Source of the DNA: Isurus oxyrinchus
Taxonomy: Eukaryota
DNA length: 64,000 nucleotides
Assembly (NCBI GenBank): GCA_026770705.1
Contig: JANJGN010000014.1
Coordinates: 77,252,001-77,316,000 of the forward strand
Direction: 5' to 3'
Shown piece after piece: positions 1 through 44,574 of this stretch (within the stretch, counting starts at the first letter, position 1; each line of letters starts with the position of its first letter). The notes below the pieces were generated by a model, which made no database searches, was not told where the DNA came from, and saw only the letters and a list, made by a program, of their open reading frames with translations. The translations under genes and the position numbers were made by a program.

Positions 1-977
1 AACGGGTATTGTTCTGACTGAAGGGAAGCATGCGCTGGGGTCCCCCAAAGGTCAGTACTGGGACCATTGCTTTTCTTGTTATATACAAGTGATTTGGACT
101 TGGGGGGAGGAAGTACAATTTCAAAGTTTGCAAATGATACAAAACGTGACAATATAGTAAGTAGCGACCAGCATAGTAGCATACTACAGGAGAACATAGA
201 CCAGTGAAATGGGCTGACTCGAAGCAGATGTAATTTATTGTAGATAAGTGTGAAGTGAAACATTTTGGGGGGAACAACATGGAGAGGCACTATATTCGCA
301 ATGGTACTATTTTGAGAGGGGTTGCAAGAACAGAGGAACCTGTGACTGCATATTCGTAAATCTTTGAAGGTGGCGAAACAAGTTGGTAAGGCAGTATGGA
401 GTATTTGGCTTTGTAAATAGATTAACAATAAAGTTATGCTAAACCATTAGGTCTCCAGATTGAGTATTGTGCATAGTTCTGGGCACCACACTTTAGGAAG
501 GATGTCAAGACCCAGAAAGTGATACGGAGAAGGCTTACCAGGATGATACCAAGGAGGAAGAAGTTCGGTGATTTGGAGAAGCTGGGATTGTTCTCCTTGG
601 AATGGAGAAGGTTAAGGGGAGACATAATAGAGACATCCAAAATTATGAAGAGCTTTGATAGAGCAAGTAGGATGAAACTGTTTCCTTTGACAATTGGATT
701 GGTAACCAAAGGTCATAGATTTAAAATAATTGGCAAAAGAACTTGAGGGCAAATGAGAAATTTCTTCACCCAGTGTTGTTGAGACCTGGTCTCCCTGAAT
801 GTGTGATGGAATCAGATCCTATAGACATTTTGAAATGGTAATTTGGCATATACTTGAAGACTAATTTGCAGGAAAAGTCTGGTTATAGGACTAAATTGGA
901 CAGTTCTTTCAAAGAACCAGCACAAAACCAGATGGGCCGAATGGCTTCCTTCTGGCCTCTAAGATTCTATGATTCTG
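1..977 (+). mobile_element. CR1-clade LINE, decayed RT and 3' end
   Basis: Decayed GVPQGSVLGPLLF motif near 37-80; LGLFSLEWRRLRGD; 3' tail gatgggccgaatggc...gattctatgattct. Confidence 0.9.
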
Positions 978-1339
978 ACTAGAGAGAGACCAGAGTTCAG
1001 AGCCAAAGTGGGAACAAGACTGAGCGGATATTGACTTAATGCAGCTAATCAGGTAGTCTCCATCTTGAAGACAACCTCATGAGTTTCTTGCCCTTGTTAG
1101 GGTGAAGGGAATAGAGGAACCGAGTTGAATGTGATGGTTGGTAATAAAACTAGGAGTCTGGAGTCATTTTTACATGACAGAATATTACTAGACTGGATAG
1201 CCATTTTACCAGAGGGGAAAAAGGTCTTTTAGCGCTTAATGTGGTCAGACCAGATTGTCAATGGCTGGCTAAGCTAGCTTTGCACCATGTACACTTGCAT
1301 TTGTACCCCTTGGATTTAACTGAATAAAGTCGAAGGCTG

Positions 1340-2253
1340 TGTCATGGAAATATAATAATTTCCCTAATATTATTGTGATTTATTGTAAAAATGGATTAAT
1401 AGTGAGGTTTGGATTAGTTTCTGTGTATGTGTCTGGGGGAGGGGGGAGGGGATTTAATTGAATTGGAGACAGCTGGTCTGGAGGTTTATCAACAAGAAAC
1501 TAGATTTGAAATGCTAAATACATAAACATGGCCAAAGTTTTAGAATGTAAGGTGTGAGGAAAATTTGCATTTATAGATATATTAGGATAGTTTGAATTTC
1601 AAAGAGATGGTGAAATGTTACACTTAGCCAGAAGAAGCTAAGCCAAAACAGTGTGTTTATTTTTCCCAAAGGTTACTGATAATATGGACATTATGAAAAG
1701 ATCTATATTATGAAAAAAGTAAAATTGCAAAAACATATGGAAACAATGGAATTTACAATAAAAAGGGAGAAACATGTATAAAGAAGATGAGGCTGTGTGT
1801 CAGAGGGGGAAGGCATTCTAAGATCTAACACGTGTGAAAAGCCTCCAGCTTCTGTGCATCAAGTTGTTGACTATAGGATCCGAAGCTGAAAAAACTCACT
1901 TTGAATTCAACTGTCCAGGGGCATTGTGTGGCTTTGCCTGTGTCTGTTTAAATCTATTTGATTTTACTGTAGCTTTAGTGGGGGTGTAACTGGAAACCAG
2001 ATTAATTAGGGGTTTTAGGAGTTATTATATTGGTAATATGTAGACCTAGGTATGTGCTTGAAACCTCTTTTGTTAATAAATGTTTAATTTAGTTTTGTAA
2101 AAAATCTCTAAGTGTTGGTGGATTTATTACTACTGAATTCAAAGTATGCATCTCAAAATAAAATACAAATTGAAAAATTGTTGTGACCGCATAATCAAGT
2201 TTTCCCTTGTAGATTTGATCCACCAGGCACATATCATCTGCCACGTCATAAAA
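1340..2253 (+). mobile_element. Solo-LTR-like element
   Basis: Starts TGTCATGG, ends gtcataaaa (cf. -cataaca); AATAAA and 3' layout similar to the LTR at 14910-16084; no TSD found. Confidence 0.5.
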
Positions 2254-2732
2254 AACAGAGATGAAAAGCAGTAATAGTTTTGCAGAGTTAATGTCTTCAA
2301 AAGTGGAGAAAAGGGTGTGATTAAGCAAAACATCAGCTGCAGAAATATCGTGGGAAGTGGAGGACTGAAACTTCAGCAGTACAGAGTTTGGAAGTGTTGT
2401 TGTAAGCCACTAGAGAGAGATTTTTCCCCAGGCGAGGTTTGCAGGAAACGGAGCTTAAGGAGGACAGGGAGATATGGGTAATGAAGGACACAAGGAAGTG
2501 TTCAGAAGTGTCATTGTTGTTACTTACACCGTGGGATTGGAGAAGTCACGTGAGAAAGTGAGGTGATGGTGATGGCAATGAACGTAGGCAGGTAAGTTTA
2601 TATGGAAGGAGAGATCTAGGAAGGACACGAGAGCATGAATTTAAAGAAGAGAGGATAAGGACATTGAAATTACCGAGGATGATTGCCTTTTGCAGATGCT
2701 GAGGGAAGTGAAGACCACAAGAAACATCATAT

Positions 2733-3460
2733 TCAACAGCAATCTTACCTTTAATTTAGTAAAATATCTCAAGCACTTCACATGTGCTTTATCAGATATA
2801 AGTTGACACCGAACCACATGGGGAGATATTAGGATAAGTAAGCAAAAACTTTGTCAAAGAGATAAGTTGGAAGAAGCACCTTAAGGTAGGAGAGAGAGCG
2901 AGACACAAATGTTTAGAGCATGAATTCCGGAGCTTAGAGCCAAGACAGCTGAATGCACAGCTGCCAACGGAAGGGCAAAAATAATTGGGGATGCACAAGC
3001 AGCCAGAATTAGAGGAGCACAGAGATCTAGGGGAGTTGCAGATCTAGAGGAGATTGCAGAGATAAGGAAGGGCAAGGCCAGAAAGGTATTTGAACACAAG
3101 GATGAGAACTTTAAAGTTGGGGTTTTGCTTGTCCAGCATCCAATGTAGGTCAGGGAGTGCAAGGTTAATACATGAATGGCACCATTTGAAATAGTATATG
3201 GCAGACCTTTGAATGAACTGAAGTTTATGCAGGGCGGAAGATGGATGGCCGACCAGGAGAGCAATGGAAAAGTCAAGTCTGGAGGTAACAAAATCATGGA
3301 TGCGAGTTTCAGCAGCAGAAGGGCTGAGGCAGGGGTGTTGATGGACGATCTGATGGTAGAAGTAGGGTCTTGGTGAGGGAGAGGATATGGTTGACTCAGC
3401 TCAGCTCAAGGTCATCCAGAATGCCAAAGTTGCATTCAGTTTAGTTCAGCCTGAGACAGA
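2733..3460 (-). mobile_element. L2-clade LINE 3' fragment
   Basis: Frameshifted L2 C-terminus (LHWLPV/FKILIL-like region) and the same tail as 7318-7900 and 30478-32305. Confidence 0.75.
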
Positions 3461-9153: not shown

Positions 9154-12100
9154 TATCATGCCGGTAGAAAGTTACATTCAAATTTCTTGCAAATCTCATT
9201 ACACCACAGAAAAATTTAAAATGTGTGGGAACCAGCATAAACAATCAGGGTCAAGGCAAATGGAGAATGGGCAACCGTGATGGAATCTGTGGTTTCAAAG
9301 CTTATAATTTTTTGAGATAGACTCTAAATGAAAGGGAAACTGAGAAAGGAAATTGACCCTTGCAATTGCTAAGGAAACTAAGACTGAAACCGAGATCGGA
9401 AACCAATACTTATGGGGAGAGTGAAATTGTATAAAAAGGACACAGAGCCATCAGCGCTCAGATGTTGATCGCAGTGTGCTGTACAGGCAGACTGAAGAAG
9501 ACAGGCTGGATCCAGAAGTTGGGAATAAGCAAATATAAAGTTCCTACAGCTATTTCTGTTACATAAAGAAAACATTGATGGATCTATGCCATCTAGACTA
9601 TCCTAATCAGAGTTGAAGAGGTTTTGCAGACATGTGCCATTTTTATGAAGACCATGCCTATGGAACATGGGTTGGCTGTGCGCTGCTGTTGGCTGACAAT
9701 CAGGGTAAATCTTAGAAAAGGAGCTGAAATTCTTTGTGAGGAAGACAGAATTTTGAAGGACTTTTAAAACTGAGATTGATGATATATATGCTGAGTGGAC
9801 TGCCAAGCCAATTTGTAAGATCTGTCTGTCTTAGTTGTATCTGCCATTTAATGTGTAATCTATAGTTTAAAATTGACTGCAGTTAGCCTGTTAATTCATG
9901 TTTAACTTATGTTGATATTCTAATCACCTATACTCTACGTTAGAATATGGGTGGTTACTCAAGATGTAGTGTTTGCTTCGTTTGTCTCTTGTATAGTAAA
10001 ATTTCTTTTGTCTTACACCGTGAAATCACAGAATCTCACAGTGCGGAAGAGGCCCTTTGGCCCATGGAGTCTGTACCAACACGTGAGAAACACCTGACCT
10101 ACCAACCTAATCCCATTTACCAGCACTTGGCCCATAGCCTTGAATGTTATGACGTGCCAAGTGTTCACCCAGGTACTTCTTAAAGGATGTGAGGCACCCT
10201 GGCTCCACCACCCTCCCAGGCAGCGCATTCCAAACCGTCACCACCCTCTGGGTAAAAAAGTTTTTCCTCACATCCCCCTTAAACCTCGTGCCCCTCCTGC
10301 TCCTCACCTTGAACTTGTGTCCCCTCGTGACTGATCCTTCAACTAAAGGGAACAGCTGCTCCCTATCTATCCTGTCCATGCCCCTCATATTCTTTACCCC
10401 TCAATCAGGTCGCCCCCTCAGTCTTCTCTGCTCCAACGAAAACCACCCAAGTCTATCCAATCTCTCTTCATAACTTAAATGTTTCATCCCAGGCAACATC
10501 CTGGTGAATCTCCTCTGCATCCCCTCCAGTGCAATCACATCCTTCCTATAATGTGGTGACCAGAACTGCACACAGTCCTCCAGCTGTGGCCTCACCCAGG
10601 TTGTAGACAACTCCAACATGACCTCCGTACTTTTGTAATCTATGCCTCGATTGACATAGGCAAGTGTCCTATATGTCTTTTTCACCACCCCACTAACATG
10701 CCCCTCTGCCTTCACAGATCTATGGACACACACGCCAAGGTCCCGTTGTTCCTCAGAACTTCCTAGTGCCATGCCATTCATTGAATACTTCCTTGTCAAA
10801 TTACTCCTTCCAAAGTATATCACCTCACACTTTTCAGAGTTAAATTCCATCTGTCACTTATCTGCCCATTTACCATCCCATCTATATCTTCCTGTAGCCC
10901 AAGACACTCAACCTCACTGTTAACCACCCGGCCAATCTTTGTCATCCACAAACTTACTAATCCTATGCCCCACATAGTCATCTATGTTGTTTATATAAAT
11001 GACGAATAATAGGGGACCCAGCACAGATCCCTGTGGTACACCACTGGACATGGGCTTCCAATCACTAAAGCAGCCTTCTGTCATCACCCTCTGTCTCCTA
11101 CAACTAAGCCAATTTTGAATCCACCTTATCAAATTACCCTGTATCCCATGTGCATTTGCCTTCTTTATAAGTCTCCCATGTGGGACCTTGTCAAAGGCTT
11201 TGCTGAAATCCATATAATCTACATCAACTGCACTACCCTCATCTACACACCTGGTCACCTCCTCAAAAAATTCAAATTTATTAGGCATGACGTCCCTCTG
11301 ACAAAGCCATGCTGACTATCCCTGATCAAACCTTGCCTCTCCAAGTGGAGATAGATTCACTCCTTCAGAATTTTCTCCAGTAGTTTCCCTACCACTGACG
11401 TGAGACTCACTGGTCTGTAGTTCCCTGGCTTACCTCTACAACCCTTATTAAATAGTGGAACCACATTAGCTGTTCTCCAGTCCTCTGGCACCTCCCGTGG
11501 CCAGAGAGGAATTAAAAATTTGGGTCAGAGCCCCTGTGATCTCCTCTCTCACCTCCCTCAGCAGTCTGGGACACAAATCATCCGGACCTGGAGATTTGTC
11601 CACTTTTATGCCTGCCAACACCTCCAATCCTTGTCACTCCCTATATCAATTTGCTCAAGAGCCTTGCAGTCCCTCTCCCCAAGTTCCATACCTTCATCCT
11701 CATTCTCTTGGGTGAAGACGAATGCGAAGTATTCATTCAGCACTGTACCGATGTCCTCTGGCTCCACCCATAGATTGCCCCCTTGGTCCCTAATGGGCCG
11801 TACTCTTTCCCTGGTCATCCTCTTCCCATTGATATACTTATAGAATATCTTGGGATTTTTCCTACTTTTACCAGCCAGAGCTTTCTCATATCCCCTCTTT
11901 GCTCTCCTAATTGCTTTCTTAAGCTCCACCCTGCACTTTCTGTACTCCGCTAATGCCTCCGCTGATTTGCTCCCCTTGTACCTATTAAAAGCTTCTCTTT
12001 TCCTTCTCATTGTATCCTGAATATCTCTGGTCATCCATGGTTCTCTGGGCTTGTTATTCCTTCCTATCACCCTAGAGGGAACGTGTTGAGCCTGTACCCT

Positions 12101-14013
12101 CCCCATTTCCTTTTTGAATACCCCCCACTGCTCTTCTGTAGATTTCCCCACAAGTAGTTGTTCCCAGTCTACCTTGGCCAGATCCTGCCTTATTTTACTA
12201 AAATCCGCTCCCCCCCAATCCAAAACATTTTTTTGCAACTTGTCTTTTTCTTTGTCCATAACAAGCTTAAATTGTACCATGTTGCGGTCTCTATCACTAA
12301 AATGCTCCCCCACCACCACCTCAGCCACCTGTCCGGCTTCATTCCTCAGAATTAGGTCCAGCACTGCACCGTCCCTTGTTGGACCCTCTACATATTGACT
12401 TAAAATGTTCTCACGTACTCATTTCAAGAAATCCACTCCATCCAAGCCCTTAACACTATGTCTATCCCAATTAATGTTGGGAAAGTTGAAATCACCTAAT
12501 ATAATTACCCTATTGTTATTGTTTTTACACACCTCCACAAATTGTGCACATATTTGCTCCTCAATTTCCCGCTGACCATCTGGGGGTCTATAATAAACAC
12601 CTAACAATGTGGGTGCTCCTTTTTTATTCCTAAGCTCTATCCACAAAGCTTCATTCGATGCCCCCTCCAAGATATCATCTCTCCTTACTGACTCCTTAAC
12701 TAATAATGCAACGCCTCCTCCTCTTTTACCCCTTCCCCTGTCTCACCTAAGATTCTATATCCCGGAATGTGGAGCTGCTGATCCTGCTCCTCCCTCAACC
12801 ACGTCTCAGTGATGGCTACTATATCACATTTCCACTTGTCAATCCTCATCCTTAACTCATCCATTTTACCTGTAATACTGCTGGCATTAAAGTAGAGGCC
12901 ATCCAGCCTTGCTTTACTCTCTTGAAACTTAATGCAGCTGTACTTCCTCTGACTTGATTGTTTTACTGTATTATGATGTGTCCCTATTCTGCTAACATTC
13001 TGTGTCCCCTCCCCCTGCCGAATTAGTTTAAGCTCCTCCCAACAGCACTAGCAAACCCACCCGCAAGGATGTTAATCCCGCTCTGGTTCAGATGTAGACC
13101 ATCCCACTTGTACAGGTCCCACCTTCCCCAGAAACGGTCCCAGTGATCCAGGAATCTAAAACCCTCCTGCACCAACTCTTAAGCCACGTATTCATCTGCA
13201 CTATTCCCCTCTTTTTGCGCTCGCTAGCATGTGGCATTGGGAGTAATCCAGAGATTACAACCCGAGAGGTCCTGCTTTCTAGTTTATTGCCTAACTCCCT
13301 GAATTCTTGATGCAAGACCTCATCCTTCTTTCTACCTACATCATTGGTATCAACGTGTACCATGACCTCTGCCTTATCGCCCTCCCCCTTCAGGATGCCC
13401 TACAGCCGTTCAGTGACATCCCGGACCCTGGCACCAGGGAGGCAACACACCACCCTGGAGTCATGTTGACGGTCACAGTGGCGCCTATCTGTTACCCTGA
13501 CTATAGAATCCCCTATTAGTATTGTTTTTCCTCTCTTCCTCCCCTCATGTACAGACAGGCTGCTTGTGGTGCCAGAAGCTTGGCTCTGTCTGCACTCCCT
13601 GGAGGAACCAGCACCCTCTTCAGCCTGCAAAATGCAATACCAATTTGCAAGCGGGACCCCAGGGGACTCCCGAACTACCTGCCTGTTTCTTTTGGACTGC
13701 CTGGTCCAAGACCTTAAACTATAAGCAATAAAAGTAGTAAATACTTACCGACCTTACCCACTATTTACCAGTCATTTCTCTGCCTTGTAGCCTCTACTGC
13801 TGCAGCAGGGCAGGACCACTCTCAGTTCAATTCCCACTGTGCACCAAATTGCCAATACCCACACTCACACTGGCTGTGTCTCACTCAGGATGAGGTCTTT
13901 ACCCTGCTCGTGTGCAAGCACAGAATCTCGTGGCTTCACTCTTTCAGTAAATAACTGGGATTTCAGATTCCTTTTTTTAAAAAAAATTACCGGTTTTGAC
14001 AGAGATCATAATA
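9154..14013 (+). mobile_element. Solo LTR split by a CR1 insertion (parts 9154-10026 and 13919-14013)
   Basis: The rejoined halves (..cttacaccgtgaaatc|tcgtggcttcactc..gagatcataata) align with the reverse complement of the LTR starting at 41373. Confidence 0.6.
10027..13918 (-). mobile_element. Near full-length CR1 LINE (5'UTR, partial ORF1 esterase, APE-RT ORF2), frameshifted
   Basis: ORF1 ILIGDSIVR..CCLPGARVRDV..HVDTND (SGNH esterase); APE GVYYRPP and ILGDFNFP; RT DFSKAFDKVPH and GVPQGSVLGP; 11-bp flanking repeat CACAGAATCTC at 10027-10037 and 13919-13929. Confidence 0.95.
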
Positions 14014-20334: not shown

Positions 20335-23110
20335 AAATAGTAAAAAGGTGTTCAGAAAAAGGGTAGGATTGATTATGAAGCAAAAAGATCTTGAAGAGGC
20401 AGAGGGCATGGTTGAGGTGCTAAATGAGTACTTTGCATCTGTCTTCATGGAGGAAGAGCATGCTGCCATTCTCTAAGTAGAAGAGGAGGTAGTAGAGATA
20501 TTGAATAGAGGTAACGCTTAAAATTGGCAGGACTCAAAGTAGAAAAGTCACCCCATCCAGATGGGATGCATCCCATGGGCAGAATTTTCCCCCGTTGGGG
20601 GCGAAGTTGAATGGCGGGCGTGCACAAGCGTGCCTCCGATCAGGGGCAGCACCTTTTTACGTGGCCCGCCCAGCACGATGTCCGCACGGAAGCGCTATGA
20701 GCTCCCTGTGCGGGGGTGGGGGGGCGAATCCCTATATCGAGTGTGTGCTCTTTCGCACATGCGCACAAAAGAGTGCATTCATCTCCCTGAGGCTAAGTGC
20801 AGCCTCAGGGAGATTGGCTCTACTCTCAAAAATATTAAAAATAGAAAAAAAAAATTCCCTGACAAGTCCCCTCCCCTCATGTGACACTGTCACCTAAGTT
20901 GGGAATGTCTATAATTTTTACAAAAACTTAAATAAAATTTTTTCAAACCTACATGAAACCTCATCCCGCCCGTGGATGAAGTTTCATGCTTTTTCTAATT
21001 CCCTCCGGGACTCCTGGCCTATCCGCCAACCTTAAGGTTGGACGGGCAGGTCCATTAATTAGCTAAATGACTGTCAATGGCCTCAATTGGCTATTGACAG
21101 GTCAGTGGGCGCACAGCTGATTTTGCTGCACCCCCGCCTACCGGAAAATTTAAATGGGGTGCAGTGACGTTGGGAGTTCCGCCCGACATCATCCAGCGTC
21201 ATTTTGTGCATCGGCGAGTGGGCCCCGCTCGCCAATGGGAAAGTCCTGCCCTACGTTGCTGAAGAAAGTAAAGGGGGAAATTGCAAAAGCTCTGTCTACT
21301 TACTTTTAATCTTCACCAGATTTGGGAGTGGTGCCAGAGGACTGGAAGATTTCAAACGTTACACCCCTATTCAAAGAAGGGGGAGAGAGCTAAACCCAGC
21401 AACTAAAGATAAGTCAGCGTAACATGAGTCATGGGGAATCTTTTAAAGTGAATAATCTGATTAGCACTTGAGAATATATTGGTTAATAAAATGAAAACCA
21501 GCATGGACTTGCTAAAGGTACATTGTATTTGGCTACCTTAAATTATATATTTGATGAAGAAACGAGGTTGATCAGGGTAATGCAGTTAAATGTCCATATG
21601 GACTTTGATAAAGTACCAGATTATAGATTTATGAGCAAAACTGAAGTCCATGTGATTAAAGCCGCTGTGAGAGTAGGGATACAAAATTAGCTAAGGGACA
21701 GAAAGCAGAGACTAGTGATGAACAGTGAGTTTTAGATTGTTTGGAAGTATACAGTAACATTCCCCAGGGGTCAGTGTTGAAATCACAGGTCTTTTTGATA
21801 AATGTTAATGACCTGGACTTGGGTATACATGACATAATTTGATAACTTGCGGATGTTATGCAACTCTGAATAAACAAAGAGAAGGGCATAAACTGGTGAA
21901 ATGGACAAATACATGGCAGATGAAATTTAATGCATATTAGTGTCAAATGCTATATTTTCGTAGGTAGAATTAAGAGGTGCAATTTAACCTAAATGGTACA
22001 ATTTTGAAGTTTGCACAGAACAGAGAAACCTGGGGGCATTTGTGCACAAATTTTTGAAGGTGGCAGGACAAGTTGAGAAGGTTGTTTTTTTTATTCATTC
22101 ATGGGATGTGGCTAGGCAAGCATTTAATGCCCATCCCTAATTGCCCTTGAGAAAGTGGTGGTGAGTTGCTGCCTTGATTTAAAAAAAAGCATGACTTTTG
22201 TCTTTATACATAGAGGCATAGAGTGCAAAAGCAAGCAAATACACTAATCTTTACAAAACACTGGCTATCTCCAGCTGGAGTATCGAGTTCAATTCTGGAT
22301 GTCACACTCTAGGAAGGATGTTAAGGCCTGTGACAGGATATAGAAGGATGAGGAACCTCAGTTATGTAGAAAGACTGGGGTTGTCTTCACAACAGAGTTT
22401 AGAAGAATGAGAAATGATCCCATTCGAACATACAAATTCCTTACAAGGCTCGAAAGGGTAGATACAGGAAGGATGTTTCCCCTAGTGTGGGAGTGGGGTG
22501 GTGTTGGTCAAGAACCAGGATACACAGTCTCAGAAAAAGGGGCAGGCCATTTAGGACTTAGATGAGGAGGAATCTCTTCATTCAGGGGGTGGTGAATCTT
22601 TAGAGGGCTATGGAGGTTCAGTTATTGACTCTGTTCAAGACTGAGATCAATAGATTTCCACATATTAAAATCATCAAGGGATACATACGGTGATAGTGCA
22701 AGAAAATCGTGTTGAAGTAGAACATAAGCCATGATCTTATTGAATGGTGGAGCAGGCTCGAAGGGTTGAATGGCCTACTCCTGCTCCTGTTTCTTATGTT
22801 CTTAACAGAGAAGGTTAAGAAGAAATTTGATAAAGGCGTTAAAACCATGAAGTATTGTGATAAATGATGAGATGCTTTTCAGTGGCAGAAGTGTTAATAA
22901 CCAGAGGACATAGGTTTAAGGAAATTGACAAAAAAAACAGAGGCAACATGATGCTGAGATGATCTGGAAAACACTGTCAGAAAGGGCCGTGGAAGCACAT
23001 TCAAAAGTAATCTGAGGGAATCAGATAAATACTTGAAGGGAAAATTTGCAGGGTTATGGTTAAAGAGTAAGGTGGAGTGAGACAAAATAAAGAGCCATTC
23101 CAAAGATTCT
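20335..23110 (+). mobile_element. Decayed CR1 ORF2 with a nested MITE and nested LINE tails
   Basis: LNEYFASVF, KSP.PDGMHP and PQGSVL remnants; a second CR1 3' end at ~22375-22805; a minus-strand tail fragment at ~22085-22180. Confidence 0.8.
20577..21251. mobile_element. PIF/Harbinger-like MITE, copy 3
   Basis: TIRs GGGCAGAATTTT / GAAAGTCCTGCCC; interrupts the CR1 at GATGCATCCC|..|GTTGCTG. Confidence 0.85.
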
Positions 23111-26923: not shown

Positions 26924-27484
26924 TCTACAGTAGTCACTGTTGTGCTCAATAAACTCCCATAAATAGCAATGTGATAATGATCAGATAATCTGTTTTTGTG
27001 GTGTTGATTTAGGGATAAATATTAGTCAGGGCACCAGGGATAACTCCCCTGTTCGTCTTCGAAATAGTGCCATGGGATCTTTTATATCCACCTGAGCAGA
27101 CAGATTGTTTAACGCAGGCTTATCCAACTTGTTCACTTGGGGGGCCACATTTTCATTTTCTTCTCACTCAAGGGGCCAATGAGCAAATTTGAGAAAAATA
27201 AAGTTTGTCACAACATTAAACGTGAATTTCAAAATTAAGTTGAGCTATGAAGAAAAGAAACAAACTGCCGAGCAAAAATAAAGCAATGTCAAAGCAATAA
27301 GTTGATATTTAAAAAGAGTAATTAATAAAGATCACCATTAGAATGTGAGAGGGACAGTGTCTGTTTGTGTGGCTCACTCCCAATCTCTTGATACTTGTTC
27401 ACTCACCCTCACCCACCATGTGAATGTTGTGATTGTGTGTGAGGGTGAATGGGAAACCTGAGACTGGAGTGAGCCAGACACACA

Positions 27485-28460
27485 CATACTTCCCACACTC
27501 ACTCACTCGCTCTCCCACACTCACCCACTCACTCACACTTACCCACTCACTCTCCCACACTCACCCACTCTCGCTCTCTCCCACACTCGCTCCCTCCCTC
27601 TCCCACACTCACTCACTTTCCCACACTTGTCCATATTCTCTCCCACACTCGCTCACTCTCTCTCCCACACTCACTCATTCTTTCCCCCACAATCTCATTC
27701 TTTCTCCCACTCTCACTCTCCCACACTCACTCACTCCTTCCCGTACTCACTCACTCTCTTCTCCCCCATACTCACTCTCTCCCCATACTCACTCACTCTC
27801 TTCTCCCCCATATTCACTTGCGCACTCTCCCACACTCACTCACTGCCTCCCCCATACTCACTCTCTTCTCCCCCATATTCACTCGCTCACTCTTCCACAC
27901 TTGTCCATATTCTCTCCCACACTCGCTCCCTCTCTCTCCCACACTCGCTCACTCTCCCACACTTGTCCATATTCTCTCCCACACTCACTCACTCTCCCAC
28001 ACTCGCTCACTCCCACACTCGCTCACTCTCCCACACTTGTTCATATTCTCTCCCACACTCTCGCTCTCTCTCCCATGCTCACACAGTCTTTCCCCCACAA
28101 CATTCTCTCTCCCACACTCACTCACTCTCTCCCACACTCACTTACTCTCTCCCATACTCACTCACTCTCTTCTCCCCCATACTCACTGACTCTCTCCCCA
28201 TACTCACTTACTCCCTCCCCCATACTCACTTGTGCACTCTCTCTCTCCCCTTACTCATTCACTCTCTTCTCCCCCATACTCACTCGCGCACTCTCCCACT
28301 CTCACTCCCTCTCCCACACTCATTCACTCTCTCCACATTTGCTCACTCACTCCCACGCTCACTCACTCTCTCCCACTCTCACTCACTCTCTCTCCCCCAT
28401 ACTCACTCTCTCCCCCATACTTGCTCTCTCCAACACTCATTCACTCCCTCTCCCACACCC
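27485..28460. repeat. C/A/T-rich degenerate minisatellite (CCCACACTCACTCACTCTCT-like units)
   Basis: Read directly; almost no G on the + strand; higher-order repeats such as cacacttgtccatattctctcccacactc. Confidence 0.95.
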
Positions 28461-28951: not shown

Positions 28952-29385
28952 TTTTTTTTTTTACATTCATTCATGGGATGTGGATGTCACTGGCAATGCC
29001 AGTATTTATTACCCATCACTAATTGGCCCTTGAAGTGGTGGTGAGCTGTCTTCTAGAATCCAACTGAGTATCTTGCTAAGCCATTTCAAAGGCCAATCAA
29101 GAGTCAACAACATTGCTGTGGTTCTGGAGCCCATGTATGCGAGACTGGTTACGGACAGCAGATTTCTTTGCCTAAAGGAAATTAGAGAACTAGATGAGTA
29201 CTTATGACAACTCAATAGTTTCACGGTCACCGTTACTGGACTGGCTTTTATTCCCGATTTATTTAATTAACTGAATTTAATTTCCCACAACTGCCATGGT
29301 AGGATTCAAACTCCTGTCTCGGGATAATAATCCGGGTCTCCAGATTACTAGCCCTGTAATGTAACAGCTATGCCACTGCACCACC
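28952..29385 (-). mobile_element. tRNA-headed short element sharing its 5' head and 3' tail with a CR1-group LINE
   Basis: B-box-like GAGTTTGAATCC (minus strand, 29302-29313); head matches 44335-44574; tail matches 34410-34505; ends in poly(A). Confidence 0.8.
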
Positions 29386-29649
29386 CTAGAGATGGCACCT
29401 CAGACAGTGCGGCACTTGCTCAGTGCAACACTAATGTCAGCCATGATTTTTACACTCAGTTTCTGGAATGGGACTTGAACCTTATGGTTAGAGGCAGGTG
29501 TGTTACCAACTGAGCCATAGCTGACACTAAAGAATATTTAGATAAAAAGAATGGTAAAACTGATTTATGACTTACAAAATTTATTTATGATAATGTTAAT
29601 TGTGCTTGAACAATTAACTAACTTCTGTAATAATACTGTCACAGGTCTT

Positions 29650-32305: not shown

Positions 32306-32451
32306 ATAATGGAACTTTTCCTCAAAAATGTTGTGGATACTGAGTCAATTGAAATCTTCAAGGCTGAGATTGAAATATCTTTGTTCAATTATCAAGGGAT
32401 ACCAAAGATTATCAAAGGCAGTTAAAATGTAACTAAGTTACAGATTAGCCA

Positions 32452-34510
32452 GCCCTTCCACGTCGAGTCATGAGTGGTGGTGAACAGTTAAACAATTAAT
32501 AGGAGGAGGCTCCACAAACATCCCCGTCCTGAACGATGGTGGAGTGCAGCACATCAATGAAAAGACAATGTTGAATTGTTTGCAGTCATCTTCAACCAGA
32601 AGTGTCAATTCTCCTCCTGAGGTCACCAGTGTCACAGGTGCCAATCTTCACCTCACATGATATCAAAAAACAGCTGAGCGAACATGTTACAGCAGTGATA
32701 TGAGTCCCAAGAATATTTCAGTCATGGTGCTGAAGACTTGTGCTCCAGAACTAGTCATTCCCCTAGCCAAACTGTTCCAGTACAGGACAACACTGGTACC
32801 AATGATGTGGAAAATTGCCCAGGTATGTCCGGTCCACAAAGAGAAGGACACATCCAATCCAGCCAATTTACCATCTAATCAGCTTGCTCTCAATCATCAG
32901 CAGAATGATAGAAGGTGTTGTTGAGAGCGCTATCAGCAACGACCTGCTCACCATGCTCAGTCTGGGTTCCTCCAGAAGCACTCCACTCCAGACCTCATTA
33001 TCACCTTAGTCGAAACATAGACAAAAGGGCTGAACTCCAGTGCTGAGGTGAGAGCGACTGCCCTTGACACCAAGGCAGCATTTGACTATCATGTATGTAG
33101 CATCATGGAGCCCTATTAAAATTGAAATCAATTAGAATTCAGGAAGAACTCTCCACAGGCTGGAGTCATACCTAGAACAAAGGAATACGGTTGTATTTTT
33201 TGACGCTCAATTATCTCATCCCTAGGATGTTGCTGCAGAAATTCCTCAGGGCAGTGGCCTAGTCCCAAGCATCTTTAGCTGCTTCATCAGTGACATTCCA
33301 TCATAAGGTCAGAAATGAGGCTTTCACTGATGATTACACAGTGTTCATTATCATTCGTAACTCCTCACATACTGAAGCTGTCTTTGCCTGTGTGCAGCAA
33401 GATGTAGACAACTTTCAGGATTGGAATTTTAAATGACCTGAAACATAAGGATAACTACCAGGCAATGAACTTCTTCAGCAAGAGAGAATCTTAACCATCT
33501 CCCCATGATGTTCACAAATATTACCATCGCTCTGAATCCCCCACCATCAATATCCTGGGGGGGTTACCATTGACCAGAAACTTGAATGCATGAGCTATGT
33601 AAATATGGCTACAAGAGCAGGTAATAGGTTGGAAGTTCTATGGCAATTAGCTCACCTGACTCCCCAAACACTGTTCACCATCTACAAGGCACAAGTCAGA
33701 GGTGTGATGGAATACTCTGCACTTGCCCGGAAGAGTGCAGCTCAAACAACACTCAGGAAACATGATATCATCCAGGGTGAAACAGTCTGCTTGACTGACA
33801 TCTTATCCACCAACTTAAACATTAATTCCCCAGACACCACTGGTGCACAATGTCAATAGTGTGTACCATGCACAAGATGCGTTGTAGTAACTCACCAATG
33901 CTTCTTCGACAGCGCCTTGCAAACCCATGAAATTGGCCACCTAGAATAACAAAAAGAGCAGCAGGGTGCATCGGAACACCACTACCACAATTGCAGAGTG
34001 TTCCATCCCACCTCTGACTTGTGCCTTTTGGATGGTGAACAGTGTTTGGGGAGTCAGGTGAGTTAATTGCCATAGAACTTCCAACCTATTACCTGCTCTT
34101 GTAGCCATATTTACATAGCTCATGCGTTCAAGTTTCTGGTCAATGGTAACCCCGCAGGGTATTGATGGTGGGGAATTCAGCAGCGATGTTAATGTCTGTG
34201 AACGTCATGGGGAGATGGCAAGTTCCCCTCCAAGTTACACACCATCCTGATTCATGTTTAAAAAAAAATCACTGTTCCATCACTATCATTGTGTCAAAAT
34301 CCTGGAACTCCCACCCTAATAGCACTATGGGTGTACCCACACCACATGGTCTGTCATAGTTCAAGCATTTGGCTCACTGCCACCTCACAAGGGCAGTTAG
34401 GGTGGCAGTTCAAGCAGTCAGCTCACTGCCATCTTCTCAAGGGCCATAGGGATGGGCAGTAAATGCTGGCTTTGCCAGCAATGCCCCCCACCCCATGAGC
34501 AAATAAAAAC
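32452..34510 (+). mobile_element. CR1-group LINE (second family), 5'-truncated and decayed
   Basis: VLKTCAPEL..PLAKLFQY, WKIAQVCPVHK and IYKAQVR.VMEYS; same family as 42405-44574. Confidence 0.85.
33495..34218. repeat. Local inverted duplication (33495-33721 copied as 33992-34218)
   Basis: Near-identical reverse-complement arms; the ORF track shows MSYVNMATRAGNRLEVLWQL on both strands. Confidence 0.93.
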
Positions 34511-35462
34511 AAAATTGAATGGTGGAACTGGTTCAAGGAATTCAATGGCCTACTTCTGTTTCTATGTACGTGACTGTTGAATAAGTTAGTCATCTCTTGC
34601 TCCATATCAGAGTGCTTATTGTTCGTCTTGAAAATGTTTTGACCATTTCTAAATTTTGTCTCTGCCAAAAAAATACCAGTCTGAAACAAATTTCCTGAGA
34701 GGGTGATGGAGGCAGGTTCGATCGAGGTATTCACAAGGGAATTGGATTGCTACCTGAAAAGAGAGATGTGTAAGGTTGCAGTGATAAGGCAGGGGAGTGG
34801 GACTAGGTGGAATGCTCTTTCAGAGAGCCAGGTGCAGACTCGATGGGCTGAATGGCTTCCTTCTGCACTGTAAAGATACTGTGATACTGAGAGATTTACT
34901 AACACTGTTGGGTAGGGTTTAAACTAGATTGGCAGGGTGGTGGGAATCTGAGAGAGAGCTCAAATGAGAGGGAAGCAAAACTGGTAACAAAGTAGAAAAG
35001 TAATAAGCTAAATTAGAAGGCAAACGAAATGAAGGCAAGCATCAAATAGGATCAGAATGTGGAATAATGTTAAAAAGACAAAGTTAAGGGCACTCTATCT
35101 GAATGCATGCAGCATTCACAATAAGTTAGATGATTTGAAGGTGCAAATAGAAGTAAATGGTTGTGATTTAATTGCCCTAACAGAGAAGTGGTTATGGGGT
35201 GAACAGGACTTGGAACTAAATATTCTGGGATATTCACCACTTAGGAAGGATTGACAAAAATGAAAAGGAGGTGGGGTAACGCTGCTAATAAAGGACAAGA
35301 TCAGTATGTTAATGAGGGAAGACCTTAGATTGAAGGATCAAGATGTAGAATCAATATGGGTGGAGCTAAGAAACAGGAAGGGGCAACAAACATTAGTGGG
35401 AACAAAAACAGAATTACCTGGAAAATCTCAGCAGGTCTGGCAGCATCGGCGGAGTAGAACAA

Positions 35463-35501
35463 AGTTGACGTTTCGAGTCCTCGTGACCCTGCAACAGAAC
35501 T
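35463..35501 (-). ncRNA. Second hammerhead-like motif (left PLE arm)
   Basis: Minus strand reads AGTT-CTGTTGC-A-GGGTC acgag GACTC-GAAA-CGTC-AACT. Confidence 0.6.
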
Positions 35502-37853
35502 GAGTAAAAATAGGAGAGGGGTGAAATATAAGCTGGTTTAAGGTGGGGGGTTGGGGGGGGTGGTTGTAGGGACAAGCAAGCAGTGATAGGAGCAGATAAT
35601 CAAAAGATGTCACAGACAAAACAACAAAGAGGTGTTGAAGGTGGTGATATTATCTAAAAGAATGTGCTAATTAAGAATGGATGGCAGGTCACGCAAGAGA
35701 CAGCTCTGGTGCAGGTGGGGTGAAATAAGACTAACATGGCATAAAAGGTATAGATTTAAAAATAATGTAAATAGGTGGGAAAAGAAAAATCTATACAAAT
35801 TATTGGAAAAAACAAAAGGGAGGGGGAAGAAACAGAAAGGGGGTGGGGATGGAGGAGGGAGTTCAAGATCTAAAGTTGTTGAATTCAATATTCAGTCCGG
35901 AAGGCTGTAAAGTGCCTAGTCGGAATATGAGGTGCTGTTCCTCCAGTTTGCATTGAGCTTCACTAGAACAATGCAGCAAGCCAAGGACAGACATGTGGGC
36001 AAGAGAGCAGGGTGGAGTGTTAAAATGGCAAGCGACATGGAGGTTTGGGTCATTCTTGCGTACAGACCGAAGGTGTTCTGCAAAGCGGTCGCCCAGTTTG
36101 CATTTGGTCTCCCCAATGTACTGGAGACTGTATTGGGAGCAACGAATACAGTAGACTAAGTTGGGGGAAATGCAAGTGAAATGCTGCTTCACTTGAAAGG
36201 AGTGTTTGGGCCCTTGGACGATGAGGAGAGAGGAAGTGAAGGGGCAGGTGTTGCATCTTTTGCGTATGCATGGGGAGGTGCCATAGGTTGAGGAGTAGGG
36301 GGTGATGGAGGAGTGGACCAGGGTGTCCCAGAGGGAACGATCCCTATGGAATGCCGCCGGGGGGATGAAGGGAAGATGTGTTTGGTGGTGGCATCATGCT
36401 GGAGTTGGCGGAAATGGCGAAGGATGATCCTTTGAATGCGGAGGCTGGTGGGGTGATAAGTGAGAACAAGGGGGACTCTCATGTTCTGGGAGGGAGGAGA
36501 AGGCGTGAGGGCGGATGCGTGGGAGATGGGTCGGACACGGTTGAGGGCCCTGTCAACGACCTCTCTGTCTCAATTTCTGGTGATAGGCTGTCCACCAATA
36601 TCCATTACAAGCCTATCGACTCCCACAGCTACCTCAACTACAGCTCCTCACATGCCGCTTCCTGTAAGGACTCCATCCCATTCTCTCAGTTCCTTCGCCT
36701 CCGTTGCATCTGTTCTGATGATGCTACCTTCAAAAACAGTTCCTCTGACTAGTCCTCCTTCTTCCTTAACCGAGATTTTCCACCTATGGTCGTTGACAGG
36801 GCCCTCAACCGTGTCCGACCCATCTCCCACGCATCTGCCCTCACGCCTTCTCCTCCCTCCCAGAAACATGATAGGGTCCCCCTTGTTCTCACTTATCACC
36901 CCACCAGCATCCACATTCAAAGGATCATCCTCCGCCATTTCTGCCAACTCCAGCATAATGCCACCACCAAACACATCTTCTCTTCACCCCACCCACCCCC
37001 GGCGGCATTCCATAGGGATCGTTCCCTCTGGGACACCCTGGTCCACTCTTCCATCACCCCCTACTCCTCAACCCCCACCTACGGCACCTCCCCATGCATA
37101 TGCAAAAGATGCAATACCTGCCCCTTCACTTCCTCTCTCCTCACCGTCCAAGGGCCCAAACACTCCTTTCAAATGAAGCAGCATTTCATTTGAATTTCCC
37201 CCAACTTAGTCTACTGCATTCGTTGCTCCCTATGCGATCTCCTTTACATTGGAGAGACCAAACGCAAACTGGGCGACCACTTTGCAGAACACCTTCGGTC
37301 TGTCTGCAAGAATGACCCAAACCTCCCTGTCGCATGCCATTTTAACACTCCACCCTGCTCTCTTGCCCACATGTCTGTCCTTGGCTTGCTGCATTGTTCC
37401 AGTGAAGCTCAATGCAAACTCATCTTCCGACTAGGCACTTTACAGCCTTCCAGACTGAATATTGAGTTCAACAACTTTAGATCTTGAACTCCCTCCTCCA
37501 TCCACACCCCCTTTCCGTTTCTTCCCCCTCCCTTTTGTTTTTTCCAATAATTTATAAAGATTTTTCTTTTCCCACCTATTTACATTATTTTTAAATCTAT
37601 ACCTTTTATGCCCTATTAATCTTATTTCATCCCACCCCCACTAGAGCTGTACCTTGCGTGTCCTGCCATCCATTCTTAATTAGCACAATCTTTTGGATAA
37701 TATCACCACCTTCAACACCTCTTTGTTGTTTTGTCTGTGACATCTTTTGATTATCTGCTCCTATCACTGCTTGCTTGTCCCTACAACCACTTCTCTCCCC
37801 CCACTCCCCCACCTTAAATCAGCTTATATTTCACCCCTCTCCTATTTTTACTC

Positions 37854-37892
37854 AGTTCTGTTGAAGGGTTACAAGGACTCGAAACGTCAACT
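37854..37892 (+). ncRNA. Minimal type I hammerhead-ribozyme-like motif in the PLE pseudo-LTR (variant core)
   Basis: AGTT-CTGTTGA-A-GGGTT acaag GACTC-GAAA-CGTC-AACT: stem I, core, stem II, GAAA and GUC site; core has U at the conserved A6 position. Confidence 0.65.
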
Positions 37893-40384
37893 TTGTTCTT
37901 CTGCGCCGATGCTGCCAGACCTGCTGAGTTTTTCCAGGTAATTCTGTTTTTGTTTTGGATTTCCAGCATCCGCAGTTTTTTTTAATATCAAAACATTGGT
38001 GGGAGATGTTTACAGACCACCAAGCTATATTGGTAATGGGCAAACCTAATTAGCACTAATGTTGTGGAGGATGAATTCCTGGAGTTTGCATGTGACGGGT
38101 TTCTGGAGCAGTACCAGAACCAACTAGAGATTGGGCTATTTTTAATTTAGTATTATGTAATGAGAAAGGGCTGTTCAATAGCTTTGCTGTAAAGGAGCCT
38201 TTAGGAAATAGTTACTATAATATGATAGAGTTTTATATTAAGTTTCAAAGTTATATAGTTCATTCTGAAACTAGGGTTCTATACCTGAACAAGTAAAATT
38301 ATGAAGTTATGAGTGGCAAGTTGGCTATGGTGGATTGGGAAAATGTATTAAAAGATTTGATAGTTGACCAGCAATGGCCAGTATTTTTTAAAAGTATTAC
38401 ATGGTCTACAGCAGATATACATTCTTCTAAGACACAAAAACCCAACAGGTGAATCAACTGTGGCTAACAAAAGAAGTTAAAGATTACATTAGATCAAAGG
38501 AAGTGGCTTATCAAATTGCAAGAAAAAATGGTAAACCTGAGGATTGGGAGTAATTTAGAAACCAGCAAAGGAGGACCAAGAAACTGATTAAGGGAAACGG
38601 GAATATGAATGCAAGCTAGCAAGTAACGTAAAGGTGGACTGTGAAAGCTTCTTTAGGTATGTGAAAAGGAGAAGATTAGCAAGACCAAATGTGGATCCAT
38701 TACAGGAGACAGGAGAATTTAAAATGGAGAATAGGGAAATGGTGGAGAAACTAAACAATTATTTGTGCCTGTCTTCACAGAGGATGATCCAAAAAAATCT
38801 CCCAGAAATACTAGGGAACCAAGGGATTTGTGAAAATGAGGAACTGAAAGAAATTAGTATTAATAAAGAGTTAGCACTCTAAAAATTAATTGGATTGAAG
38901 GTTGGCAAATCCCTTGAACCTGCTGAGCTACATCCCAGAATATTTAAGGAGGTGGCTATGGAGATAGAGGATGCATTGGTAGTTATTTTTCAAAGTTCTA
39001 TAAATTCTGGAAAATTTCCTGCAGACTGGAAAGTAACTAGAAACAGAGAACCACAAATCTGTTAGTTTGACGTCAGTAATAGGGTAAATGTTAGAACCTA
39101 GTATAAAGGATGTGATAACTGGACACTTTGAAAATAATATGATTGGGCAGAGTCATCATGGATTTATGAAAGGGACATCATGATTGACAAACCTATTAGA
39201 GTTTTTTGAGAATGTTACTTGTAGCATACATAAAGGAGAACCTATAGTGTATTTGGATTTTCAAATGGCTTTCAATAAGGTCCAACACAGGAGATTAATA
39301 AACAAAATTAGAGCGTGTGGGATTGGGGTAATGAACTCTATGGATTAAGAATTGGTTAACGGATAGAAAACAGAGAGTAGGAAGAAATGGGTCATTATCA
39401 GGACGGCAGGCTGTTATTAGTGGGATACTGCAAAGATCAATTCTTGGGCCACAGCTATTCATGATCTATGTAAATGATTTGGATGCGGGGACCAAATGTA
39501 AAATTTGCTGATGACACACAACTAGGTGGGAATGTGAGTTGTGAGGAGGATGCAAGGAGGCTTCAAGGGGATTTGGACAGGCTAAGTGAGTAGACAAGAA
39601 CATGGCAGATGGAATGTACTGTGAATAAATGTGATGTTTGATAAAGCAGAAAGGCAGAGTATTTCTTAAATGGCGAGAGGTTGGGAAGTATTGATGTCCT
39701 TATTCATGAGTCACTAAAAGCTAGCAAGCAGGTGCAGCAAGCAATAAGGAAGGCAAATTATATGTTGGCCTTCATTGCAAGGGTATTGGAGTACAGGAGT
39801 AAAGATGCCTTGCTGCAATTGTATAGAGCCTTAGTGAGACCACACTTAGACCAATGTGTACAGCTTTGGTCTCCTTATCTAAGAAAGGATGTACTTGGCA
39901 TGGAGGGAATGCCATGGAGCTTCACCAGACTCCCCTATGGAATGCCGGGATTGTCTTATGAGGAGAGATTGAGGAACCTGGGCCTGTATTCCCTACTGTT
40001 TCGAAGATGAGAGATGATCTCATTGGAACTTACAGAATTATTATAGGGCATTTTCTCCTGGCTGGTGAGTCTAGAAGCAGAGGACAAAGTCTTAGGATAA
40101 GGGGTAAGCCACTTAAGACTCAGATGAGGAGGAATTTCTTCACTCAGATGGTGGTGAATCTTTGGAATTCTCTGCTGCAGAGGGCTATGGAAGTTCAATC
40201 ATTGAGCATTTTCAAGACAGAAATCGATAGATTTCTGGATACCAATGACATCAAGGGATATGGGGATAGTGGGGAAAAATGGCATAAAGGTAGATGATCA
40301 GCCATGATCTGTTTGAATGGCAGAGCAGGCTCGATGGGCCAAATGGCCTCCTCCTGCTCCTATTTATTATGTTCCAATGTATTT

Positions 40385-40700
40385 TGTCCCAGCGACAGTG
40401 AAGGAATAGCAATATATTTCCAAGTCAGGATGATGTATGCCTTGAAGGAAAAATTGTAGGTGGTGATGTTTCCACCTGCCTGCTGCCCTAGTTCCTCTGT
40501 GTGGTAGAGGTTGCAGGTTTGGAAGGTCCTGTCGAAGGAGGCTCGATGAGTTGCAACAGTACATCTTGTAGATAGTACACATTGTTGCCACTGTGCATTG
40601 GTGGTGGAGGAAGTGAATGTTTATGGTGGGGATGCAGTGTTAGTCAAGTGGGCTGTTTTGTCCTGAATATTGTCAAGCTTCTTTCGTGTTGTCTGAACTG
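40385..40700 (-). mobile_element. CR1-group LINE 3' fragment (family of 32452-34510)
   Basis: Reverse complement resembles 33830-33990 joined to 34219-34310. Confidence 0.75.
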
Positions 40701-42404: not shown

Positions 42405-44574
42405 GTGTTACTCACCACTTAGCAGCCTAAGCCTGAATGTTGTCCAAGTCTTGCATATGGGCACAGACTGCTTCAGTATCTGAGGAGTCATGAATGGAGC
42501 TGAACATTGTGCAATCATCAGCAAATATCCCCACTTCTGACCTTATGACGGACGGAAGGCGATTGATGAAGCAGTTGAAGATGTTTGGGCCTTGGGCACT
42601 ACCCTGAGGAACTCCTGCAATGGTGTTCTCGGACTGAGATGATTGACCTTCAACAGCCACAACCACCTTCCTTTGCAGTCGGTATGACTTCACCCAGTGT
42701 CAAGTGTTCCCCCTGATTCCTATTGAGTCCAGTTTTCATAGGGCACCTTAAAGTTACACGCGGTCAAATGCTGCCTTGATGTCAAGGACAGTCACTCTCA
42801 CCTCACCTTAAGTTCAGCTATTTTGCCCATGTTTGGACTAAGGCTATAATGAGGTCAGGACCTGAATGGCCCTGGTGGAATCCAAACTGAGCAGGAGTGA
42901 GTAGGTTGTTTCCACTTGATAGCACTGCGACCACCCCTTCCGTCATTTTACTGATGATCAAGAGTAGTTTGCTGGGGCAGTAATTGGCTGGGTTGGATTT
43001 GTCCTGCTTTTTGTGGACAGGACGTAGTAGGCAGTTCTCCACATTGCCAGGTAGATGCCAGTGTTGTAGCTGTACTGGAACAGCTTGGCTAAGAGCGCAG
43101 TTAGTTCTGGAGCACAAGTCTTCAGCACTATTGCTGGAATGTTGTCAGGACCCATAGCCTTTGCAGTATCTTCAGAATCACGTGGAGTGAATCGAATTGG
43201 CTGAAGACTGGCATCTGTGATGCTGGGAACCTCGGGAGAAGGCCGAAATGGATCATCCGCTCAACACTTCTGGCTGAAGATGGTTGCAAATGCTTTAGCC
43301 TTGTCTTTTGCACTGATGTTCTGGGCTTCCCCATCATTGAGGATGGGGATATTTGTGGAGCAGCCTCCTCCAGTTAGTTGTTTAATTGTCCACCATCATT
43401 CACGACTGGATGTCGCAGGACTGCAGAGCTTAGATCTGATCTGTTGGTTATGAGATCACTTAGCTCTGTCTAGCACATGCTTTCGCTGTTTGGCACGCTA
43501 GTGTTGCAGTATTGCCAAGTTGACACCTCATTTTAGGTATGCCTGGCTTGCCCTTCTGCACTCTTCATTGAACCAGGGTTGCTAGATCTATTCAAAATCA
43601 ATCCCATTTAGCACGGTGCTATTGCCACACAACACAATGGAGGATATCTTCCATGAGAAGACAGGACTTAGTTTTCACAAGGACTGTGCGGTGGTCACTC
43701 CTACCAATACTGCACTGGACAGTTACATCTGCAACAGGCAGATTGGTGAGGATGAGATCAAGTAAGTTTTTCCCTCTTGTTGGTTCCCTCACCACCTGCC
43801 ACAGGCCCAGTCTAGCAGCTATGTCCTTTAGGACAGCCAGCTTGGTCAATAGTGGTGCTACTGAGCCATTCTTGGTGACGGACAAAGTTGTTCCCCACCA
43901 GAGTATATTCTGTGCCCTAGCCATCCTCAGTGCTTCCTCCTAGCGGTGTTCAACATGGAGGAGAACTGATTCATCAGCTCTGGGGAGGCAGTACATGCTA
44001 ATCAATAGGAGATTTTCTTGCCCATGTTTGACCTGATGCCAGTAAACTTCATGGGGCCCAGAGTCAATATTGAGAACTCCCACCCAACTGTACACCACTA
44101 TGCCATCACCAGGGATGGTGACGCCTGGGACATTGTGAGGTATGATTCCATGAGTATGACAATGGCAGTCTGCTTGACCAGTTTGTGGGACAACTCTCCC
44201 AACTTTAGCACAAGCCCCCAGATGTTACTAAGGAGGACTTTGCAGGATCGACAGGGTTGTGTTTACCATTATCATTCCCAGTGCCTAGATCAATGCCGGG
44301 AGATTCTTTTTGTAGGCCTCGGAACGATTTCATACAACTGAGTGGCTTGCTAGGGCATTTCAGAATCAACCACATTGCTATAGATCTGGGGTCATGTGTA
44401 GGCCAGACCAGGTAAGGATGGCAGATTTCTTTCCCTAAAGGGCATTAGTGAAACAGATGGGTTTTTACGACAATTGACAATAGTTTCATGGCCACTATTA
44501 CCAAGATTACTTTCCCGTCTCCCCAGAGTATTGGTCTGGGCCTCTGGATTACTAATCTGGTAACATTACCACTA
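42405..44574 (-). mobile_element. CR1-group LINE with tRNA-like 5' head, APE and RT, no visible ORF1; 3' end missing
   Basis: EPTRGKNLLDLILTNL..SDH (APE); GPDNIPAIVLKTCAPEL; GVPQGS..FADD (RT); 5' 240 nt homologous to the SINE head at 29061-29385. Confidence 0.85.

Follow-up and report, generated by a model that had tools for sequence, protein, structure and literature searches.

The element on the minus strand at 42406–44574 of the window, the 64-kb stretch of DNA analyzed here, is a dead, decayed copy of the ORF1-less Zenon family of long interspersed elements (LINEs) of elasmobranchs, and the tRNA-like head of ~320 nt that opens it, in the family equipped with A and B boxes, is confirmed by sequence comparison to be the family's own 5′ end, not a chance insertion. 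In the explanation to which we give somewhat better than even chances, RNA of the Zenon LINE would be made by Pol III from this tRNA-like head, would need neither cap nor AUG for its translation, and would give rise to short interspersed elements (SINEs) by internal deletion. In the textbook view, LINEs are coding elements transcribed by Pol II, and SINEs are non-coding elements transcribed by Pol III. Were the explanation true, this division would no longer hold, since an abundant LINE of vertebrates would combine a tRNA-type promoter and a coding strand poor in terminators with the absence of an AUG. Such an element would be a naturally occurring messenger made by Pol III, and new SINEs could arise from it in a single step. 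Since head-bearing and head-less Zenons are found side by side in vertebrates, together with three dated short families, the question is a testable one.

The complete LINE, in which positions are counted from the first G of the column majority of 26 full copies, is about 3.29 kb long (3287–3299 nt) and consists of the tRNA-like head (to about 95), a conserved body (to 318), a leader, a frame for the APE endonuclease and reverse transcriptase (RT), and a short tail that closes with a run of A. Both enzymes are encoded in the single long frame of the majority (309–3233; 975 codons, one internal stop). ORF1 is absent, about 440 nt preceding the endonuclease, within which the longest other frame measures 86 codons from stop to stop. 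LINE and short copies alike end with GAATGAAT plus a short A run, that is, a poly(A) tail. Pfam searches with four pieces left two without a match, and gave RVT_1 above the cut-off on one sister copy (L130; E 2.5e-18) and Exo_endo_phos_2 on another (L116; E 2e-5, 24.9 bits, below the cut-off of 27.4).

The window copy starts at 44574 with TAGTGG and spans family positions 16–76, 118–1155, and 1280–2515. The tRNA-like head's 5′ half (family 16–76), comprising an A-box remnant, an anticodon-like arm, and part of a long variable arm, occupies 44514–44574; at 44513/44514 a deletion of 41 nt relative to the family majority (family 77–117), private to this copy, has removed the B box located at 75–85, as the sequence-only reading had recognized, and family 1156–1279 is missing as well. 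There follow the conserved non-coding body (44333–44513, family 118–318), which is common to the short elements described below and present as the same block in 7/7 elasmobranch consensuses; the leader (44227–44332), which in the family is rich in Arg and open in the frame of the ORF but contains no ATG in that frame; the decayed APE endonuclease domain (43680–44226, from N-I-W-G to S-D-H); and the decayed RT domain (42406–43161), with D-I-K-A-A-F-D-R-V at 42783 and F-A-D-D at 42525. N-I-W-G at 44226 lies about 108 nt past the CAGTTG near 44335 that is shared with the short element, and no ORF1-sized frame is found between them, so that the LINE does enter APE sequence shortly after the head without ORF1, as had been claimed. 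Since the window copy stops at family 2515 (42406), lacking its 3′ third and a tail of its own, the tail of this LINE is assigned from other copies. The window also contains an older, 5′-truncated copy on the plus strand (32450–34513), in which 34410–34513 matches the tail of the Zenon family, bearing out the earlier assignment of 34410–34505; this copy contains an inverted internal piece at 33988–34218 and a short tail duplication (34220–34513). Two minus-strand fragments of the same LINE are found at 40371–40700 (family 2814–3136) and at 22085–22177 (tail only, family 3189–3291).

The association of head and LINE recurs throughout the genome. A first query, composed of the join and the endonuclease start with few head bases, gave 4484 candidates, of which 40 were scored and 30 loci taken; among the 29 non-self loci, the head is entered by 25, of which 19 reach its 5′ end, and the other 4 stop at 328–359. 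A second query, a mid-ORF piece of another copy, is free of the bias of the first toward the head: 13 of its 29 non-self loci are truncated or rearranged inside the ORF, and 15 of the 16 passing the endonuclease start continue into the head, the remaining one stopping at 344. The consistent presence of the head upstream of APE-start matches, proposed earlier as a check of the model, was thus observed with both queries. Sequence flanking the head is unrelated between copies, 15/20 loci extended to 4.5 kb reach the tail, and the 22-nt head-to-LINE join (four variants) has 1807 exact matches in the genome against 0 for the reversed control. Furthermore, 7/7 published elasmobranch Zenon consensuses, from five sharks and rays, open with the head and body in the first 400 nt compared; over the same length, two hagfish and one coelacanth Zenon consensuses (0/3 with the head) have unrelated starts, two of them carrying T4 runs. 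Accordingly, the 5′-complete copies and the seven elasmobranch consensuses share one head and lack ORF1, and copies of this kind with another 5′UTR or an ORF1, regarded beforehand as the sign of a chance insertion, were not encountered. Insertion of a SINE by chance before a 5′-truncated LINE at the window locus only, which the decay of the window copy and its lack of a target-site duplication (TSD) might favor, is vanishingly unlikely in view of the number of exact joins, the copies recovered with the unbiased query, and the occurrence in five species. The expectation of TSDs outside the head was not borne out in the 26 full LINE copies, the mean best flank match being 6.6 nt versus 6.5 nt for swapped flanks, and these copies are old; no young or intact copy was found among those compared, the best pairwise identity being 88% and the identity to the majority 87–95%. 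Copies at five loci (L192, L204, L206, L005, and L011) stand directly behind 3′ pieces of a same-family copy in the same orientation, and insertion near their own kind or tandem integration is possible.

The element had rightly been placed in the CR1 group, but its lineage is Zenon, not canonical CR1. It is devoid of the ORF1 of canonical CR1 (HER1 type), its RT motif is ALDIKAAFDRVWH versus YLDFQKAFDKVPH in the CR1 families used as controls below, and it is about 24% identical to the CR1 copies of the window. In a tree of 157 RT pieces rooted with the CR1 of the genome, the element falls among unnamed relatives, several nodes with a support of at least 0.9 away from CR1, and the named RT relatives include a calcareous sponge. 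Zenon elements of five elasmobranchs have been described under the names CarCar_Zenon-1, ScyCan, RhiTyp, HypSab, and SquAca 1–3; every one of them lacks ORF1 and ends in a poly(A) tail (Stuart et al. 2026, PMC13343379, accessible part). In Table S3, intact frames number 3 of 612 in the stingray and 1 of 1419 in the whale shark. These elements belong to the same family as the window copy, with which they share the lack of ORF1 and the poly(A) tail; CarCar_Zenon-1 agrees in length (3288 versus 3287–3299 nt), and its first 400 nt match the majority almost base for base, including the head, when compared by eye. Thus, the lack of ORF1 is a normal, published trait of Zenon, and both the family and this trait were already known. 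The tRNA nature of the head is not described in the accessible portion of that paper, the text of which does not mention tRNA, polymerase III, or a promoter, and the supplement neither tRNA nor Pol III; nor does this portion describe a short partner, a T-run bias, or a missing AUG. For the invertebrate relatives, the DNA consists of one 5′-truncated contig that is probably chimeric and unusable as a control. A truncated Zenon-like RT lies between bacterial-looking gene pieces in a metagenome contig (L221), probably a chimeric assembly, and pieces of Zenon RT occur inside predicted proteins of catshark and manta ray (P0005, P0007), probably as gene-model artefacts or exonised copies.

At the default threshold, ARAGORN recognizes in the majority head an 89-nt tRNA whose variable arm is long, the A box being at 11 and the B box at 75. 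The acceptor stem and D arm of the majority head are poorly paired, and the boxes match the consensus. Over 88 natural loci, the default threshold of ARAGORN yielded 2 calls and a relaxed one 30, some few of which fall outside heads, and it found no tRNA in the 64-kb window itself; Rfam gave no tRNA or other family near threshold on five loci. No clear parent tRNA was recognized among the fetched loci, which covered Lys, Cys, Val, Ile, Tyr, and Thr tRNAs only, none with a long arm, and the match with phage tRNAs is confined to the B-box region. A long arm is typical of Ser-type tRNAs, and the head may be of such an origin. The genome-wide tRNA search also revealed a large tRNA gene cluster (C35 of G000, 13.3–17.1 Mb), the loci fetched being mostly Lys(TTT). 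A different function of the tRNA-like fold would be that of a cut signal for RNase P in read-through Pol II transcripts, analogous to the R2 ribozyme, so that the RNA would have a defined 5′ end and no cap; this is improbable, as stem and D arm are poorly paired while the boxes agree with the consensus, and avoidance of T runs is not predicted by it.

Such avoidance is a marked property of the sense strand. Vertebrate Pol III stops at runs of at least four T and also at degenerate T5-like signals (PMC3141230, accessible part). The majority of the 26 full copies contains 0 T4 on the sense strand versus 14 A4, 11 C4, and 9 G4. With synonymous codons of the ORF permuted, runs of T3 or longer number 4 against 13.1 expected, none of 1000 shuffles being as low, and T4 runs number 0 against 2.2 (P 0.08), which is weak alone; A runs are as expected under the same permutation, so the shortage is strand-specific. 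The strong signal is therefore that of T3, which alone is not a canonical Pol III terminator. The first 1900 nt of an older subfamily contain 0 T4 and 3 T3 against 2.9 and 13.9 expected by base shuffling, although the two subfamilies, being 91% alike, are not independent tests. The controls were only two families of canonical CR1 from this genome, both richer in T, represented in the window at 10146–12670 (minus strand; its copies, 94–95% identical to the window piece, look younger) and 38883–40373 (plus strand); T4 runs number 4 in the 1338 nt of one and 5 in the 2061 nt of the other, with T3 not depleted. In individual copies, T4 occurs at 0.49 per kb in Zenon versus 2.66 and 2.89 in the CR1 controls, and the sole shared T4 site of Zenon (9/26 copies; at 43597 in the window copy) results from CpG decay of TTTCG. 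The hagfish element CR1-7_EBu, which is 5′-incomplete and Zenon-like by its RT motif and A tail, has 8 runs of T4 or longer in about 2.4 kb as counted by eye. The Phe content of the Zenon protein, 1.8%, is below that of 44 of the 45 best relatives listed.

These data bear on another explanation, namely that a captured SINE head serves as the 5′UTR of a Pol II transcript, with boxes that are vestigial or bind TFIIIC only, and that T runs are scarce owing to base composition, RNA stability, or avoided pairing with the poly(A) tail. The strand-specific shortage of T3, which persists with codon use fixed, and the T4 runs kept by the poly(A)-tailed hagfish relative speak against it; that the lack of T4 alone is not significant under codon permutation speaks for it. 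In its favor also, transcription of LINEs is generally ascribed to Pol II (accessible parts of PMC10886601 and PMC5786205), the stingray consensus, as far as available, has an imperfect B box and a shortened arm, and an AATAAA about 45 nt before the tail would suit Pol II and counts against transcription by Pol III. Also counting against Pol III is the limited length of its products, SINEs measuring 100–700 bp (PMC10886601, accessible part), compared with 3.3 kb here. The RNA records found are assembled contigs, from which neither the start nor the polymerase can be read. The earlier suggestion to look for T4+ terminators was followed on 94 LINE and short-copy ends of old copies, which revealed no fixed 3′ terminator, T4+ opening the A tail in only 17/94. 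At these 17 ends, the T run forms T/A palindromes with the A tail. Because T elongation at short A tails is described as arising in copies (PMC8466645, accessible part), such T runs opening the tail are not counted as support for Pol III. Overall, the use of the head as a Pol II 5′UTR seems to us rather unlikely, also for the reasons of translation and shared use given below.

The ORF has no obvious start codon. Its first in-frame Met is codon 291 (codon 287 in the older subfamily), and the majority contains 12 ATGs upstream of the endonuclease, which a capped, scanned mRNA of Pol II would meet without finding an in-frame AUG. An ATG situated 86 nt upstream of the endonuclease does not share the ORF frame in the 45/59 copies that have the modal spacing, and reads ATA in 23/25 copies of the older subfamily; a start at this codon followed by a frameshift is thus doubtful. 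The TTG with which the body closes was also rejected as a start codon, since among 49 listed copies 14 have an in-frame TAA after it. The two closest protein relatives (40% and 38% identity) begin with a Met and a basic leader aligning with the Arg-rich leader of the Zenon element, and tests of the reading frame of the leader gave mixed results. The body folds no better than shuffled sequences (z −0.2 to −0.8), and hence an IRES structure is unsupported; a helix guessed near the leader was discarded, its pair probability being 0.24 at most. The simplest fit to these observations is a putative cap-independent start at a non-AUG codon, which would agree with an uncapped RNA.

The predicted life cycle of the Zenon LINE under the Pol III explanation would then be as follows. 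TFIIIC and Pol III would use the A and B boxes of the head, Pol III would transcribe the whole 3.3-kb element, and selection would have purged T runs since they halt Pol III. Ribosomes would be recruited by the body of 230 nt or by the leader, and the resulting protein would copy its own RNA through the tail, in cis and in trans. With a promoter and a tail at its two ends, one internal deletion would yield a ready-made SINE, which has likely happened more than once. The more far-reaching version, in which a coding LINE was transcribed by Pol III over 3.3 kb throughout shark and ray history, with terminators recoded away, AUG-less and uncapped translation, and SINEs born by single deletions, falls in our judgment slightly short of an even chance.

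The short element at 28952–29385 (minus strand) has all the parts ascribed to it by the sequence-only reading, that is, the same head with a B box, the CAGTTG, and the direct switch to the LINE tail, and it matches family 11–319 and then 3188–3292. Its head and body, in an older version of the head, lie at 29059–29385 (A box 29365–29375, B box 29302–29313), and the last ~100 nt of the LINE with the A tail lie at 28952–29058, joined at family 318|3186. It represents a real family, designated type A, because this one fixed join is common to 29/30 loci found with the window element; the 22-nt join has 75 exact genome matches (reversed control, 0), and thirty more loci picked by the join alone gave a type A majority of 426 nt without T4. 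The short-element majority is called a tRNA by ARAGORN at the relaxed threshold, with A and B boxes present. Scanning of all loci disclosed two further types, B (join 315|3216; 3148 exact matches) and C (join about 292|3217; 254 exact matches), the exact counts for A, B, and C depending on age and not being copy numbers. In the three types, head and body are linked to the final 75–100 nt of the LINE. With its tRNA-type head, partner-LINE tail, and short, fixed, multi-copy structure, the short element has the build of a SINE2. It contains nothing besides the two ends of the LINE, 5′ and 3′, as in SIDEs or bipartite elements, but the A and B boxes set it apart from SIDEs devoid of tRNA homology and a Pol III promoter, such as Persaeus. 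That one and the same head serves these non-coding elements of SINE build is a further point against its being a mere Pol II 5′UTR. In a check of the body for the conserved domains of the HCD SINE superfamilies (CORE, V, Deu, Meta), five short motifs gave one unrelated match in hagfish SINE supplements.

Comparison of head versions shows that each short family carries that of a different LINE generation. The type A head is 95.4% identical to the majority of the older subfamily (over 328 nt) and 84.8% to the younger, and its tail is 92.7% identical to LINE 3188–3283. Among near-complete heads, the older version is present in 17/19 of type A (2 ties) and in 14/16 of type B, the majority of which is intermediate (92% old, 88% young), and the younger version in 21/21 of type C, for which the head classification is the only figure used. 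Two histories had been offered for the shared ends, internal deletion of the LINE and capture by the LINE of the head of its own SINE; as three short families carry heads of different LINE generations, the former is favored and the latter disfavored, and independent deletions, each in the LINE current at the time, probably explain the head versions most simply. The opposite direction, in which a SINE lineage came first and was shortened stepwise from A to B to C while the LINE repeatedly took the current SINE head, has in its favor that loss of 30 nt between two TCAAG words would turn join A into B, that C can likewise be derived from B, and that the first head had to derive from a tRNA or SINE in any case. 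It would nevertheless need repeated capture ending at the same place (318–319), and the tails of A, B, and C also seem by eye, in small numbers, to track LINE age; we consider it unlikely.

The internal-deletion origin of the short families is worth comparing with known systems. Persaeus, derived from a lepidopteran Zenon (PMC6740152), likewise combines 5′ and 3′ Zenon ends by internal deletion and arose several times, but is stated to have no tRNA homology or Pol III promoter, whereas the shark deletion product has the SINE build from birth. Bov-tA and AfroSINE, bipartite SINEs of RTE and Vingi, similarly combine a tRNA head with the two ends of a LINE, which follow it or lie inside it (PMC5786205, accessible part); there the head was acquired later by a LINE already deleted, and its autonomous counterpart is headless, whereas the autonomous shark LINE has the head. 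The same portion of that paper mentions RTE-1_DAn and relatives, of the RTE clade, as LINEs containing a tRNA-like sequence that matches many SINE2s and dismisses the match as accidental; known by this description only, they are a possible precedent. ZenoSINE, the bivalve HCD-SINEs, and hagfish EptSINE1B/C (PMC6685494, PMC11481361, PMC7245038) have a Zenon or Zenon-like tail and share the tail only. Cassandra, Helenus, and Ajax (TRIMp3; PMC10886601, accessible part) are also non-SINE retroelements with a small-RNA-derived Pol III promoter, but unlike the shark LINE they are short, non-coding, and of LTR type. In the full-text literature, including few subscription papers, we found no tRNA-headed Zenon, no such SINE, and no Pol III-transcribed coding LINE; this judgment of novelty covers sources other than Repbase, Dfam, SINEBase, Ogiwara 1999, and the whale shark genome paper, which may bear on it.

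Several other features of the window were observed. Directly upstream of the short element and on the same strand lies a second tRNA-type head (29390–29540, minus strand) with A- and B-box-like words, which presumably resembles the Deu-type SacSINE1 and into which the short element seems to have inserted. At 27474–28458 there is a degenerate tandem array whose period is close to 40 nt. Finally, 35401–36561 and 36788–37954 form an inverted pair of about 1.18 kb with 91.8% identity, short related ends of which occur elsewhere in the window, and may constitute a DNA transposon with long inverted repeats.
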